From the NCBI RefSeq assembly GCF_013812825.1, contig NZ_JACCSU010000068.1, positions 77,845 through 141,844 of the forward strand: a stretch of 64,000 nt of DNA, written 5' to 3'. The position numbers and the translations under genes are program-made. The notes beneath the pieces are model-generated. The model saw nothing but the letters and a program-made list of their open reading frames with translations, was not told the origin of the DNA and made no database searches. Source of the stretch: Sphingomonas sp. (GTDB taxonomy: Bacteria; Pseudomonadota; Alphaproteobacteria; Sphingomonadales; Sphingomonadaceae). Below, in pieces: positions 52,078 through 56,889 of this stretch. How positions within the stretch are numbered: position 1 is the first letter of the stretch; every line of letters starts with the position of its first letter.

Positions 52078-52323
52078 TTGGCCGACCGCATCGATCGGCG
52101 GAAATCGATCGCGAACAAAAGTCGTCCACCGCTGGCAAACGCGAATCCGTGCGAGGCGCTGGGCAAAGCGCTCCATCGCGCGTTTGCGACCGACCATTCG
52201 GCCTCCTTCGACGAGGCGCTCAAGGCGATCGACGAGGCAGACAGCGAGGTCTGTGGCAATCGCGATCCAGCCGACTCAACCGTCAAAATCGCTAATTGCG
52301 CGGCGCCTGACGGCGGTAGCTGA
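52078..52323 (+). CDS. Possible small NepR-like protein
   Basis: LGKALHRAFATDHSASFDEALKAIDEAD resembles the NepR helical motif; weak TTG start; 3' end overlaps comM. Confidence 0.35.
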   Translation: MADRIDRRKSIANKSRPPLANANPCEALGKALHRAFATDHSASFDEALKAIDEADSEVCGNRDPADSTVKIANCAAPDGGS

Positions 52324-53800
52324 GCGCTTCCGCGACGTGGATCCGGCCGACCTGCTCGGCCCCGGCGAGGTCGGCGATGGTGCGCGCGACCCTGAGCACC
52401 CGGTGGAAACCACGCGCCGACAAGCGCATCGCCGCGGCCGCGTCGGCCAGCAGCTTGCGCCCCGGGTCGTCGGGAGTCGCGACCCGGCCGAGCAGCTCGC
52501 CATCGGCCTCGGCATTGGTTCGCACCCCGTGGCCGTTGTAGCGCCGCGACTGGACCGAGCGAGCGTCGGCGACCCGCAGCGCGACCTGGGCGCTGCCCTC
52601 GGCCGGCGGCGGCAAGGTGAGGTCGGCGGCGGACACTCCTTGCACCTCGACATGCAGGTCGATCCGGTCGAGCAGCGGCCCGGACACTTTCGCCTGGTAA
52701 TCGGCGGCGCAGCGCGGGGCCCGGCTGCAGGCCAGCGCCGGGTCACCGAGATGGCCGCAGCGGCACGGGTTCATCGCCGCGATCAGCTGCACCCGCGCGG
52801 GAAAGGTCACATGCGTGTTGGCGCGCGCGACGCTGACGCTTCCGGTCTCGAGCGGCTGGCGAAGCGAATCGAGGACGGCGCGCTGGAACTCGGGCAGTTC
52901 GTCGAGAAACAGCACGCCCAGATGCGCGAGGCTGATCTCGCCGGGGCGCACGCGCAGCCCGCCGCCGACCAGCGCCGGCATCGACGCGCTGTGATGGGGC
53001 GATCGGAACGGGCGCCGGCGGCGGATTCGGCCGCCGTTCAACTCGCCGGCGACCGACGCGACCATCGACACTTCGAGGGCTTCCGACGGCTCGAGCGGCG
53101 GCAGGATCCGCGGCAGGCAGGCCGCGAGCAGCGACTTGCCGGCTCCCGGCGGGCCGCTCATCAGCAGATTGTGCCCGCCGGCGGCGGCGATCTCGAGCGC
53201 CCGCTTGGCAACCTCCTGCCCCTTGACCTGACTGAGGTCGGGGCCGTGGCCGAGCGGCTCGACTTCCGCTTGCGCCGGCGGCGCCAGCAGCGCGGTCCCC
53301 TTGAGGTGGGCGAGAAGCGCCAGCAGGTCGGGCGCCGCGACGACGTCGAGCTCGCCGGCCCATGCGGCCTCGCTGCCCTGCGCGGCGGGGCAGATCAGCC
53401 CCTTGTCGTTGGCGGATGCGTGCAGCGCCGCGAGCAGCACTCCGGGCGACACGGCGATCCGCCCATCGAGGCTCAACTCGCCGACCGCCACATAATGCGA
53501 CAGGCTTTCGGCGTCCGCGGCGCCGATCGCGGCGAGCAGGCACAGTGCGATCGGCAGGTCGAAATGCGAGCCTTCCTTGGGGAGGTCGGCCGGCGACAGG
53601 TTGATGGTGATTCGCCGCGGCGGAAGCGCCAGCCCGATCGCGGCCAGCGCCGCGCGCACGCGCTCGCGGCTCTCGGCGACGGCCTTGTCGGGCAGGCCGA
53701 CGATGATGAAGGCCGGCAGCCCCGAGGAGAGCTGGACCTGCACTTCGACGGCTCGAGCTTCGAGGCCGAGGTAAGCGACGGTGGCGACGGTCGCACCCAT
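52292..53800 (-). CDS. comM: YifB/ComM family Mg-chelatase-like AAA+ ATPase
   Basis: NLSPADLPKEGSHFDL, GPPGAGKS, LFLDELPEF and SGPLLDRID motifs. Confidence 0.95.
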   Translation of the reverse strand: MGATVATVAYLGLEARAVEVQVQLSSGLPAFIIVGLPDKAVAESRERVRAALAAIGLALPPRRITINLSPADLPKEGSHFDLPIALCLLAAIGAADAESLSHYVAVGELSLDGRIAVSPGVLLAALHASANDKGLICPAAQGSEAAWAGELDVVAAPDLLALLAHLKGTALLAPPAQAEVEPLGHGPDLSQVKGQEVAKRALEIAAAGGHNLLMSGPPGAGKSLLAACLPRILPPLEPSEALEVSMVASVAGELNGGRIRRRRPFRSPHHSASMPALVGGGLRVRPGEISLAHLGVLFLDELPEFQRAVLDSLRQPLETGSVSVARANTHVTFPARVQLIAAMNPCRCGHLGDPALACSRAPRCAADYQAKVSGPLLDRIDLHVEVQGVSAADLTLPPPAEGSAQVALRVADARSVQSRRYNGHGVRTNAEADGELLGRVATPDDPGRKLLADAAAAMRLSARGFHRVLRVARTIADLAGAEQVGRIHVAEALSYRRQAPRN

Positions 53801-53939
53801 TCAGCGTGCCGCCACGGCAACTGAACGGAAATCAATGTCCAGGGATACTCCTAGCTCGGCGGGGGCACGCTAGACGCTGCGAGGCACAATCGGCAAGCTT
53901 CCCTTGCGCCGACCAGCCGACGCAACCACATGTTGGCCG

Positions 53940-54353
53940 ATGATGACTCGAGAGCAGTGGCAGGAGTTCGTCCGTAGCAAGCCGGTCCGAACCGCGCTGT
54001 TCATGACCGGGCTGCTGCTGATCCTGCTGTCGCCCCTGGCTGGCGCGATCCCCGGCCCTGGCGGGATCTTCGTGTTTGCCGCCGGTCTGACCCTGACGCT
54101 GAGGAACAGCGATTGGGCCAAGCGCCAATATGTCCGATTCAAGGTGTGGCAGCCGAAGGCCGGCCGATGGGCCGACTGGGGTCTCAGGCGTCGTAGCGCG
54201 CGGCGCCGCGAAGAGCGCCGCAAGCTGCGTCATGCGATGGGCCATCCGCCGCCGGCCGACGAGCTCGCCCAGGGCGCGATCGCGGCGATAATGCCGGACC
54301 CGCCGGCCAAGGCGCCCGAGAAATGGAGCGATCGCGAAGGGCGCTCCGATTGA
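53940..54353 (+). CDS. PGPGW-like membrane protein
   Basis: TM segment followed by IPGPGGIFVFAAGL. Confidence 0.7.
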   Translation: MMTREQWQEFVRSKPVRTALFMTGLLLILLSPLAGAIPGPGGIFVFAAGLTLTLRNSDWAKRQYVRFKVWQPKAGRWADWGLRRRSARRREERRKLRHAMGHPPPADELAQGAIAAIMPDPPAKAPEKWSDREGRSD

Positions 54354-54415
54354 CTTCCAGCGGCCCCTTCCGATTGACTTTGCGGAGGGGCTCCACTATC
54401 GGCGCACCCGACTGC

Positions 54416-54444
54416 GGCTGCCCCAACGGCGGCCCTTTTTCTTT
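54416..54444 (+). terminator. Rho-independent terminator-like hairpin upstream of rpmH
   Basis: GGCTGCC-CCAAC-GGCGGCC stem (7 bp, one G-U pair) followed by CTTTTTCTTT. Confidence 0.5.
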
Positions 54445-54474
54445 GATTTCGCGTTCACTTTGAATTTCTAGGGC

Positions 54475-54939
54475 ATGAGCGATGAAGCGCACCTTCCAGC
54501 CGAGCAATCTGGTCCGCAAGCGACGGCACGGGTTCCGCCACCGCATGGCGACGGCCGCCGGGCGCAAGCTGCTGAACGCACGCCGGGCGCGCGGCCGCAA
54601 GAAGCTCAGCGCCTAGCCACGATCCGCAAGCGCGCGGATTTCCTCGCCGCCAACGCCGGCAAGCGCGCGTCGAGCCCGGGCTTCGTGCTGCTGGTCCGCG
54701 ACCGCTCCGACGGCGATCCAACCAAGCGCGTCGGTTTCACCGTCACCAGGAAGATCGGTGGAGCGGTCGTCCGCAACCGCATGAAGCGGCGCCTTCGAGC
54801 GCTCGCCCGCGAGATCTTGCCGACGATCGGCATTCCGGGCGCCGACCATGTGCTGATCGGCCGCTCCGGCGGGATCGAGCGCGATTTCGCTCAGCTTCGC
54901 CACGAGCTGGAAGCTGCCCTGGAGCGGCTCCGCAAATGA
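54475..54939 (+). CDS. rnpA: Ribonuclease P protein component (start uncertain; the only canonical start overlaps rpmH)
   Basis: [30 protein letters not shown] (RNR motif) and DHVLIGR. Confidence 0.9.
54482..54616 (+). CDS. rpmH: 50S ribosomal protein L34
   Basis: Not in the ORF track. [44 protein letters not shown], 44 aa. Confidence 0.98.
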
Positions 54940-55148
54940 TCGCCCGGCTGCTCATCCTGGTCGCCCGCGGCTGGCAGGAGGGACCCTCGAAGGTGCTTCC
55001 GCCAAGCTGCCGCTACCGGCCGACCTGCTCGGCCTATGCGATCACCGCATTGTCGCGCTATGGGGCCGCTCGCGGCAGCTGGCTGGCGCTGAAGCGCATC
55101 TGCCGTTGCCATCCGTGGGGCGGCCAAGGCTACGACCCGGTACCATGA
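54936..55148 (+). CDS. yidD: Membrane protein insertion efficiency factor YidD
   Basis: SCRYRPTCSAY...RICRCHPWGGQGYDPVP motif. Confidence 0.96.
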   Translation: MIARLLILVARGWQEGPSKVLPPSCRYRPTCSAYAITALSRYGAARGSWLALKRICRCHPWGGQGYDPVP

Positions 55149-55170: not shown

Positions 55171-56889
55171 TTGAGCGACGACAACAAGAACATGATCCTC
55201 GCCATCGTCCTCAGCGCTCTGGTGCTGATCGGCTGGAGCATGATCTCGGACCGATTGCTGCCCACCGCCGGGCCGCAGACGCAGCGCGTCGAGGACGGCA
55301 AGGTGAAGCCGATCCCGCAACCCCAGGCCGACCCTGCCGCCGATCGGCCGCAGGCGCTGCGCAACCGGGCGATCGTACTCGCCTCGACGCCGCGCGTGCG
55401 GATCGAGACTCCCGCGCTGCAGGGGTCGATCAACCTGAAAGGCGCCCGGATCGACGATCTGGTGCTGCTCCGCGAGCGCCAGGGGATCGGCAAGGATTCG
55501 CCGCCGGTGCGGCTGCTGTCCCCGGCCGGAGCTCCGGCCGGCTATTTCGCGAGCTTCGGCTGGACCGGCGAGGGAGCCGAGGCGCCCGGACCCGACGCGG
55601 TGTGGACCCCGAGCTCGCCTGTGCTGGCACCGGGGCGCCCGGTGACCCTGACCTGGACCAGCCCCAGCGGGCTCAAGTTCGAGCAGACCATTGCGGTCGA
55701 CAATGATTATCTATTCACGGTCCGGCAGCGGGTCGCCAACGCCACCGCCAACGCGGTCGCGGTGCGCCCTTACGGGCTCATCAGCCGGGCCAATGAATCT
55801 CCTGACCCGGACGGCTGGACGATGCACGTCGGCCCAATCGGCTATCTGGACGGTGCGGCGAATTACGACGTCGACTGGGACACGCTCGACGACGCCGGCC
55901 CGAACGGCGAGCGCTTCGACAGCCGCGGCGGCTGGCTCGGCTTCACCGACAAATATTGGCTGGCCGCGCTTGCACCGGCGCAGGACGCGGCGATCAGCGC
56001 CAGCTTCCGCAAGGCTCCCAGCGGCCCCTACCAGGCCGATTTCGCCCGCCAGCCGATCGTCATTCCTTCTGGCCAGGCGGTTGCCATCGAGAGCCACTTG
56101 TTCGCCGGCGCCAAGGAAAAGACGCTGCTAGACCGCTACGAGGCAATGGGCATCCCCAAGCTTTCCAAGTCGATCGACTGGGGCTGGTTCGAGTGGTTCA
56201 TGCGGCCGATCTTCGACCTGCTCAACTGGCTGTTCAAGCAGATCGGCAATTTCGGCGTTGCGATCATCTGCCTGACGTTCATCGTCCGGCTGCTGATGTA
56301 CCCGATCGCCCAGAAGCAGTTCCAGTCGATGGCGGCGATGCGCAAGGTGCAGCCGAAGATGAAGGCGCTGCAGGAGCGCTACAAGGACGACAAGCCGCGC
56401 CAGCAGCAGGAGATCCTGAAGCTCTACCAGACCGAAAAGATCAACCCGGCTGCGGGCTGCCTGCCGATCCTGCTCCAGATTCCCATCTTCTATGCGCTCT
56501 ACAAGGTACTGATGGTGGCGGTCGAAATGCGCCACCAGCCGTTCGTCCTGTGGATCAAGGACCTCTCGGCGCCCGATCCGATGACCCCGGTCAATCTCTT
56601 CGGGCTGCTCGATTTCACGCCGCCCTATTTCCTCGCCATCGGAGTGCTTCCGATCCTGCTTGGGGTGACGATGTGGATGCAGTTCAAATTGAACCCGGCG
56701 CAACTGGACCCGACGCAGCAGCAGATCTTCGCGATCCTGCCGTGGGTGATGGTGGTCGTGATGGCGCCGTTCGCCGCCGGACTGCAGCTTTACTGGGTGG
56801 TGTCGAACATCCTGACGATCGCCCAGCAGTGGTGGCTGTACCGGCGCTACGGAGTCGATTTTACCCAACCCGCTCCGGCACCCAGTTGA
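55171..56889 (+). CDS. yidC: Membrane protein insertase YidC
   Basis: IDWGWFEWF, GNFGVAII and GCLPILLQIPIFYALY motifs; TTG start. Confidence 0.98.
   Translation: MSDDNKNMILAIVLSALVLIGWSMISDRLLPTAGPQTQRVEDGKVKPIPQPQADPAADRPQALRNRAIVLASTPRVRIETPALQGSINLKGARIDDLVLLRERQGIGKDSPPVRLLSPAGAPAGYFASFGWTGEGAEAPGPDAVWTPSSPVLAPGRPVTLTWTSPSGLKFEQTIAVDNDYLFTVRQRVANATANAVAVRPYGLISRANESPDPDGWTMHVGPIGYLDGAANYDVDWDTLDDAGPNGERFDSRGGWLGFTDKYWLAALAPAQDAAISASFRKAPSGPYQADFARQPIVIPSGQAVAIESHLFAGAKEKTLLDRYEAMGIPKLSKSIDWGWFEWFMRPIFDLLNWLFKQIGNFGVAIICLTFIVRLLMYPIAQKQFQSMAAMRKVQPKMKALQERYKDDKPRQQQEILKLYQTEKINPAAGCLPILLQIPIFYALYKVLMVAVEMRHQPFVLWIKDLSAPDPMTPVNLFGLLDFTPPYFLAIGVLPILLGVTMWMQFKLNPAQLDPTQQQIFAILPWVMVVVMAPFAAGLQLYWVVSNILTIAQQWWLYRRYGVDFTQPAPAPS

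Follow-up and report, generated by a model that had tools for sequence, protein, structure and literature searches.

The rnpA gene of Sphingomonas probably encloses rpmH, in the manner of Thermus

Results

A long rnpA reading frame spans all of rpmH

This report concerns two genes, rpmH for ribosomal protein L34 and rnpA for the ribonuclease P protein RnpA, in a 64,000-nucleotide (nt) stretch of Sphingomonas sp. DNA (contig NZ_JACCSU010000068.1, positions 77,845 to 141,844), hereafter called the window. The genes lie on the forward (+) strand in the order rpmH-rnpA-yidD-yidC, and rpmH is contained entirely within a long open reading frame (ORF) for RnpA, in frame +1 relative to it. The L34 product matches its Pfam family over its full length (residues 1–44 of 44, E 7.9e-22). 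The features on which the argument turns are as follows.

54469–54471, +, in-frame TAG two codons 5' of ATG 54475, closing the rnpA frame (sequence)
54470–54473, +, Shine-Dalgarno (SD)-like AGGG, with gaps of 8 nt to the rpmH AUG and 1 nt to the rnpA AUG (sequence)
54475–54939, +, long rnpA ORF of 154 amino acids, in the -1 frame of rpmH (ORF list)
54475–54477, +, proposed rnpA start ATG, 7 nt 5' of the rpmH ATG at 54482 (sequence and conservation)
54475–54612, +, RnpA N-terminal extension, 46 codons encoded over rpmH (translation)
54482–54616, +, rpmH, ribosomal protein L34, 44 amino acids (MKRTFQPS...), stop TAG at 54614–54616 (Pfam PF00468)
54613–54939, +, RnpA core, to the stop TGA at 54937–54939 (Pfam PF00825)
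54619–54624, +, near-cognate codons ACG (54619) and ATC (54622), candidate reinitiation sites (sequence)

A preliminary description of this DNA had traced the RnpA frame from the ATG at 54475 through all of rpmH into the core, and the sequence bears this out. Because the TAG at 54469–54471 closes the frame, ATG 54475 is the first possible start and, ahead of the core, the sole canonical one available; many relatives carry a stop at the same position, -13 relative to rpmH. Canonical in-frame starts within the ORF are 54475 (ATG), 54685 (GTG), 54781 (ATG), 54817 (TTG), and 54850 (GTG), and the window has no in-frame ATG, GTG, or TTG between the rpmH stop and the RnpA core. The codons ACG 54619 and ATC 54622, of which the preliminary description had mentioned the second, occupy the place where relatives start rnpA.

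The core is that of a complete RnpA. Residues 47–152 correspond to positions 4–108 of 109 of the Pfam Ribonuclease_P profile (E 2.9e-22), a match that spans the full domain including the RNR-motif helix, and the AlphaFold2 model predicts an alpha-beta3-alpha-beta-alpha fold whose folded part has a predicted local distance difference test score (pLDDT) of 73–88. The helix conserved near the N terminus of the core is H41–59 in this model. Nine RnpA sequences from the PDB were matched, and their residues 6–10 align to residues 46–50 here, so initiation at GTG 54685, which encodes V71 in the first strand of the fold, would remove helix 1. The earlier placement of this GTG inside the core, with nothing canonical between the rpmH stop and the first helix, is thus upheld by the alignment to solved chains.

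The extension, in contrast with this folded part, is modeled as coil over residues 1–40 (pLDDT 43–51). A, P, R, Q, and G are abundant in it, its net charge is 0, and in relatives its sequence drifts at the places where rpmH has synonymous changes, so that the constraint on it seems to be the absence of stops and not a particular peptide. These 40–46 or so residues are predicted to be disordered and dispensable.

An exact-sequence database look-up of the window's own RnpA returned no record. Databases already contain RnpA predictions of 154–155 amino acids for such genomes, S. lutea being an example. When the window sequence was compared with sequencing runs, matches were found in soil metagenome DNA runs only. 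RNA runs containing sequence like that of S. faeni or S. sanguinis consist of assembled contigs, which show neither transcript ends nor direction.

The open frame says little on its own

The window has a GC content of 67%. When the L34 codons were resampled synonymously with the codon usage of the window, the -1 frame was open in 74% of trials, and among distinct rpmH sequences of relatives that lack the upstream ATG it is open in 44 of 49. The caution voiced in the preliminary description, that GC-rich codon usage makes this frame poor in stops by chance, was well placed, and we rejected the open frame as evidence from a single sequence. Since it says little in the window alone, we collected relatives for comparison. 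Two sets were assembled: 80 loci from Sphingomonadaceae species in GTDB genomes, picked by similarity to the RnpA core only, which with the window gave 77 loci that include rpmH (76 species plus the window); and 65 metagenomic loci, picked for their resemblance to RnpA from a Novosphingobium-like relative with a conventional start.

An ATG at -7 is nearly invariant and is complementary to conventional starts

An ATG exactly at -7 relative to rpmH, followed by an open frame, is present in 75 of the 77 Sphingomonadaceae loci, and the nested arrangement occurs in four metagenomic loci besides. Positions -7, -6, and -5 are A, T, and G in 76, 75, and 76 of the 77, respectively, while the major alleles at -8, -3, and -1 reach frequencies of 61%, 53%, and 78%, and everything upstream of -12 varies freely. 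The two starts share the context GG-N-ATG-A-N-C-N-ATG, in which the A after the first ATG is found in 74 of 77 loci. The two exceptions to the -7 ATG are L060 (Novosphingopyxis), which has AAA, and L078, a Novosphingobium metagenome-assembled genome (MAG), which has TAG; both have an ordinary ATG in the spacer 3' of rpmH. The preliminary description had named stops in the overlapped frame, or a missing upstream ATG, in close relatives as what would speak against nesting; 75 of the 77 loci have both the ATG and the open frame, the two that do not have a downstream ATG instead, and the proposal thus withstood this check.

The upstream ATG and conventional starts are distributed in a complementary fashion. 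An ATG at -4, -7, or -10 is absent from all 53 loci that are not nested, and such loci start rnpA with ATG, GTG, or TTG 3–6 codons 5' of the [KR]R.DF motif. Among 135 loci, 68 have the nested ATG without a downstream canonical start, 14 have both, 50 have the downstream start only, and three have neither (Fisher p 2e-20, a value that largely reflects a single clade). No in-frame ATG, GTG, or TTG lies inside rpmH in any of the 82 nested loci, and in 68 of these 82 the stretch from the rpmH stop to the RnpA core offers no canonical start either.

The frame is also kept beyond rpmH. The spacer between the rpmH stop and the RKRADF-type motif at the N terminus of the core has 11 different lengths, from 8 to 83 nt, all of them in frame, whereas in non-nested relatives rnpA lies in all three frames relative to rpmH. 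In about 1000 nt of long spacers there are no stops in the rnpA frame, against 14 and four in the other two. The linker that joins the rpmH stop to the core tolerates insertions of up to about 75 nt (L063, L064, L047, L114, and L121), which in the nested loci L047, L063, and L064 are always in frame and stop-free. Some insertions are palindromic and resemble repetitive extragenic palindromic (REP) elements, e.g. GCGAAATCCGCCGCAAGCGGATTTCG in L114 and L121.

Nested rpmH genes avoid stops in the rnpA frame

A stop arises in the rnpA frame (TAA, TAG, or TGA) when T is the third base of an rpmH codon and the next codon begins with AA, AG, or GA. At such stop-creating third positions T is found 0 times in 364 across 75 distinct nested rpmH genes, compared with 13.8% at the remaining sites of these genes. 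For the rnpA core, yidD, and yidC of the same loci, the share of T in this codon context is 7.0%, from which about 29 would be expected. Non-nested rpmH genes have T at six of 210 stop-creating sites (Fisher p 0.002), and the rnpA frame is open in all 75 distinct nested rpmH genes versus the 44 of 49 non-nested ones given above. The signal of stop avoidance is real but modest; it is modest because this codon context is depleted in T even without a nested gene.

The start of L34 itself restricts which frame can be used. Every rpmH examined begins ATG AAR (54482–54487 in the window), so that the +1 frame opens with TGA, which leaves the -1 frame as the only one that an ORF could enter from upstream. 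For this reason Thermus (-4), Sphingomonas (-7), and the Binatia-like lineage described next (-10) all use the same frame.

A second, Binatia-like lineage and further variants

Three of the metagenomic loci (L140–L142), with a GC content of 51–57%, an rpmH of 53 amino acids, and gpsA upstream, have an ATG at -10, in the same relative frame, and no in-frame ATG, GTG, or TTG between this ATG and the core. RnpA proteins of this type form about 100 database clusters of 174–176 amino acids, the few named ones coming from "Deltaproteobacteria bacterium" and "Candidatus Binatia bacterium" MAGs. Loci of this Binatia-like lineage with rnpA running from the -10 ATG are as follows.

L140, 785–1318
L141
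L142
L146, 1201–1725
L147, 1201–1731
L148, 1033–1563

The lineage is unrelated to the Sphingomonadaceae. In five of its loci the rpmH genes are only 73–80% identical to one another at the nucleotide level, and all keep the -10 ATG and the open frame; T occurs at 0 of 42 stop-creating sites in them, versus 24% elsewhere. L148 is recorded with an RnpA of 120 amino acids from a CTG start on the rpmH stop, which looks like an annotation workaround to avoid the overlap. The gene tables of L146, L147, L149, and L150 list the long rnpA and no rpmH. Together, the missing L34 entries and the CTG call in L148 indicate that nested loci are prone to losing either L34 or the N terminus of RnpA in annotation.

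Two smaller groups were seen. In L112, L114, and L121, which are Sphingomonadales-like with 70% GC, an in-frame ATG lies about 31 nt 5' of rpmH and the frame is open into rnpA; L121 has no other canonical start, and a spacer ATG is present as well in L112 and L114. This group may be a further nested variant, or the ATG may be there by chance. In L122 (844–1060) and L123 (843–1060) there is neither an upstream ATG nor any ATG, GTG, or TTG before the RnpA core, and in L122 a TGA immediately ahead of the rpmH stop closes the rnpA frame. Judging from these sequences, rnpA must use a near-cognate start (CTG, ATT, or ATC) in both loci, unless the assemblies contain errors.

The shared leader and the geometry of the two starts

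Upstream of the two ATGs lie two further elements.

54374–54402, +, promoter-like boxes TTGACT (54374–54379) and TATCGG (54397–54402) with a 17-nt spacer (conservation only)
54416–54444, +, GC-rich hairpin (54416–54434) followed by a U-run (54435–54444) in the 5' leader (terminator-like match)

In the majority of some 70 Sphingomonadaceae leaders, TTGACT and the TA of the second box recur at an unchanged distance. The rpmH-rnpA mRNA probably begins about 70 nt before ATG 54475 and, given these conserved boxes, very probably includes that ATG. A consensus promoter scan did not call the TTGACT/TATCGG pair in the rpmH leader as a promoter. The leaders have in common a TTGACT/TATCGG-like pair, the GC hairpin with its U-run, an A/U-rich stretch, and an SD-like GG, which is conserved at -10 and -9 in 73 and 68 of 77 loci, respectively.

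The 7-bp stem of the hairpin is kept in 39 of 39 aligned leaders, where changes are mostly from G-C to G-U, with one compensatory pair. Nested and non-nested Sphingomonadaceae both have the hairpin (GGCYGYC...GGCGGCC) and U-run, about 30 nt ahead of the start codons. This element resembles an intrinsic terminator placed in a 5' leader and may be an attenuator or a 5' stabilizer; an Rfam search of the leader found no family (best E 0.29 and 0.91). Folding of the single sequence around both AUGs gave nothing better than shuffled sequences (z = +0.46), and the consensus fold of the leaders contains the upstream hairpin only, with no structure that would sequester the start sites.

The AGGG at 54470–54473 is the single SD-like element present. 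Taken as an AGGA-type pairing with the anti-SD, it gives an aligned spacing of about 14 to the rpmH AUG, which is optimal, and of about 7 to the rnpA AUG (6–9 in relatives). The preliminary description had noted the distances of this element from the two ATGs, which are confirmed, and had suggested that it would favor L34, with which the aligned spacings agree. The spacing of about 7 falls below the range that worked in Escherichia coli reporters, which may not be the rule for Sphingomonas ribosomes. In those reporters a short aligned SD spacing excludes the 5' codon from the P site, and A is the favorable base at the fourth position of a start (PMC9841429). We also considered whether extended pairing with the anti-SD might explain the conservation of GGNATGA; by inspection, no register gave a match to GGUGAUC, and this idea was rejected.

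Other starts considered for rnpA

The main and serious rival to initiation at the upstream ATG is coupled reinitiation, in which ribosomes that terminate at the rpmH TAG (54614–54616) would resume on ACG 54619 or ATC 54622 to make an RnpA of about 105 amino acids at about 1% of the level of L34, the upstream ATG and open frame being otherwise used or useless. Such inefficient coupling could supply RnpA at the roughly 1/130 of L34 that is required (PMC9945441). A GTG or ATG stands at exactly the ACG/ATC codons in L092, L018, and L066, probably the ancestral start position; near-cognate use is apparent in the order from L122 and L123, which have neither a canonical start nor the nested ATG; and in every locus with a short spacer one or more near-cognate codons occur between +131 and +146. 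However, among these short-spacer loci (n = 53) no near-cognate start is fixed at any one position after the rpmH stop, each site having one in 14–25 of the 53, and L026 and L054 have no candidate, canonical or near-cognate, from +131 to +140. What is conserved is the amino acids: position +137 encodes Thr in 34 of the 53, by way of ACG, ACC, ACT, and ACA, and +140 encodes Leu, Ile, or Met in all 53, by way of nine different codons. The commonest codons at these Thr and Leu sites (ACC, ACT, ACA, CTC, CTT, and CTA) cannot initiate. That Thr and Leu/Ile are kept through synonymous changes argues that the codons after the rpmH stop are read as sense and not as initiators. Reinitiation moreover leaves unexplained the invariant -7 ATG, its absence beside normal starts, the avoidance of T, and the second lineage. 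We consider it unlikely, but it is the alternative that deserves most attention.

A far less probable explanation is that the -7 AUG is a decoy that tunes translation of rpmH, its long product being merely tolerated and functional RnpA coming partly from other starts. Two AUGs this close are mutually exclusive for a single 30S ribosomal subunit, the extension evolves freely and is predicted to be disordered, and a possible downstream start is retained in 14 of the 82 nested loci, all of which would suit a decoy. But L34 is expressed without such an AUG in non-nested relatives, a decoy would not need the frame to stay open for 46 codons and through every spacer insertion, and the other 68 nested loci offer RnpA no other canonical start.

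Weakest of all, and very improbable, are a programmed -1 frameshift in rpmH that would yield an L34-RnpA hybrid, and a start at GTG 54685 with the long ORF an accident of GC content: rnpA does lie in the -1 frame of rpmH, and the frame is open by chance in about 74–90% of comparable sequences, but rpmH lacks an X XXY YYZ heptamer and any homopolymer run of five or more, the GTG start would delete residues 47–70 with a helix that does not vary among relatives and is present in every solved RnpA, and neither proposal accounts for the invariant ATG.

Neighboring genes

The genes that follow rnpA are these.

54936–55148, +, yidD, whose ATG overlaps the rnpA stop as ATGA (54936–54939) (Pfam YidD, E 3e-27)
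55171–56889, +, yidC (ORF list)

The ATGA overlap is the usual sign of translational coupling between yidD and rnpA. Upstream, the window encodes a ComM/YifB-type Mg-chelatase-like ATPase on the reverse strand (52292–53800) and, on the forward strand, a 149-amino-acid ORF with a hydrophobic center to which no family was assigned (53904–54353). The same pair, ComM/YifB-type ATPase and 149-amino-acid ORF, precedes rpmH in S. lutea (L149).

Discussion

The first important outcome of this analysis is that rnpA in the window is probably a Thermus-like nested gene, whose 154 codons would run from ATG 54475 through all of rpmH. This reading is drawn from comparison of sequences, where the evidence is strong: the invariant -7 ATG, its distribution complementary to that of conventional starts, the frame kept through the spacers, the avoidance of stops within rpmH, and the recurrence of the arrangement in a second lineage. 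In outline, we picture one mRNA with two AUGs 7 nt apart. Most 30S subunits would pair with AGGG and be placed on the rpmH AUG at optimal spacing, giving abundant L34, while a small fraction would initiate at the upstream AUG, probably without help from the SD element, on an A/U-rich and unstructured leader and aided by the A at the fourth position. Minority initiation of this kind would yield little RnpA, each molecule carrying a disordered extension of about 40–46 residues, and the low ratio of RnpA to L34 would be fixed at the initiation step; nesting would in this way replace the weak start codon or intercistronic terminator of ordinary rpmH-rnpA operons. The requirement for RnpA is about 1/130 of that for L34, and minority, SD-independent initiation fits this roughly 130-fold lower need (PMC9945441). 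The leader hairpin possibly modulates the competition between SD-guided and SD-independent initiation.

Several observations weigh against this proposal. First, the open frame is largely expected from GC content and is weak evidence. Second, the SD-like element lies 1 nt from the rnpA AUG, and in E. coli so short a spacing leads to initiation at the 3' start only (PMC9841429); with the element so close to the rnpA AUG, initiation there would need an SD-independent route. Third, 14 of the 82 nested loci have, in addition to the upstream ATG, an ATG, GTG, or TTG a few codons ahead of the core. Fourth, L122 and L123 have neither the nested ATG nor a canonical start elsewhere, which makes it probable that rnpA is initiated at near-cognate codons in some members of the order. 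Finally, most of our statistics come from a single clade and lack phylogenetic independence, which the p-values overstate.

The closest known system is that of Thermus, in which rnpA begins with an AUG 4 nt 5' of that of rpmH and experiments showed that both genes are expressed (Feltens et al. 2003, PNAS 100:5724, as summarized in PMC9841429). The anatomy described here matches the Thermus pair on every sequence-level criterion: both genes are on one strand with rpmH fully enclosed by rnpA, the two AUGs are a few nt apart with that of rnpA first, the genes stand in the same relative frame (the offsets -4, -7, and -10 all equal 2 modulo 3, the frame of AUGGAUG; PMC9841429), RnpA is extended at its N terminus, here as predicted from the sequence, and no separate rnpA start follows rpmH. 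There are also differences. The offset is 7 nt here (ATGAGCGATG) and 4 nt in Thermus (AUGGAUG), and the host is a mesophilic alphaproteobacterium from another phylum, which points to an independent origin. Whereas a single GGAGG is thought to serve both starts in Thermus, the SD-like element here is weak (AGGG, GAGG, or AAGG) and probably too close to the rnpA AUG to serve it. The long RnpA is, here, a predicted protein. The preliminary description had likened the locus to Thermus in two respects, and they fared differently: the nesting is supported by the 75 of 77 loci and by stop avoidance, and the notion that rnpA shares the ribosome-binding site of rpmH is not supported as such, the spacing of about 7 being shorter than those that worked in E. 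coli reporters.

Other comparisons are instructive. The conventional operon, known from E. coli and Bacillus subtilis and found in the Novosphingobium-like loci (L078 and L081–L120), has the same order rpmH-rnpA-yidD-yidC, the same RnpA core, and the same L34, but its rnpA starts after rpmH or overlaps the end of it, in any frame; here that start has decayed to ACG/ATC. The ambiguous start sites of E. coli (AUGUG or GUGUG, as in pqiA, tamA, and narQ) likewise have two starts under one ribosome footprint and overlapping frames, with partition governed by the aligned spacing of the SD and by whether the fourth base is A, but their codons overlap by 1 nt and their alternative ORFs are short and of unknown function (PMC9841429). 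In the Sphingomonas pair, by contrast, the second codon begins 7 nt after the first, and the two products are essential, conserved proteins. Two closely spaced AUGs on one mRNA also give two products in a fixed ratio in the S holin/antiholin gene of phage lambda, where the starts share a frame and yield two isoforms of one protein. The frames differ here, and the proteins are unrelated.

How often nesting has arisen is another question raised by these loci. A 2022 study of ambiguous starts still treated the Thermus rnpA-rpmH overlap as the only described bacterial case of its kind (PMC9841429), and our literature search on rnpA/rpmH overlap, nesting, and Sphingomonas found no report of a nested pair in Sphingomonas. 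The long rnpA ORF is already called by software; its recognition as a nested gene is, as far as we found, absent from the literature. The offsets may be summarized as -4 in Thermus, -7 in most Sphingomonas-like Sphingomonadaceae, and -10 in the Binatia-like MAGs, with perhaps a further variant of -31 in L121. We put forward tentatively, with slightly less than even confidence, the idea that nesting was reached at least three times independently—in Thermus, in the Sphingomonadaceae, and in the Binatia-like MAGs—and that in the Sphingomonas version, where the rnpA AUG would be too close to the SD element to use it, competition between SD-guided and SD-independent initiation on one leader would set the ratio of the two products.

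One practical consequence is that L34, or the true N terminus of RnpA, is liable to mis-annotation in hundreds of genomes. More broadly, in a large group of mesophiles that is common and can be cultivated, nesting appears to be the rule, and it seems to recur in an uncultured lineage; such recurrence would turn a curiosity of Thermus into a repeated way of hard-wiring, at initiation, the stoichiometry of two essential products. If this holds true, the Sphingomonadaceae would offer a natural, genetically tractable, mesophilic model for start selection in two frames between two essential genes, and organisms in which the choice of the ribosome between two AUGs 7 nt apart could be put to the test.

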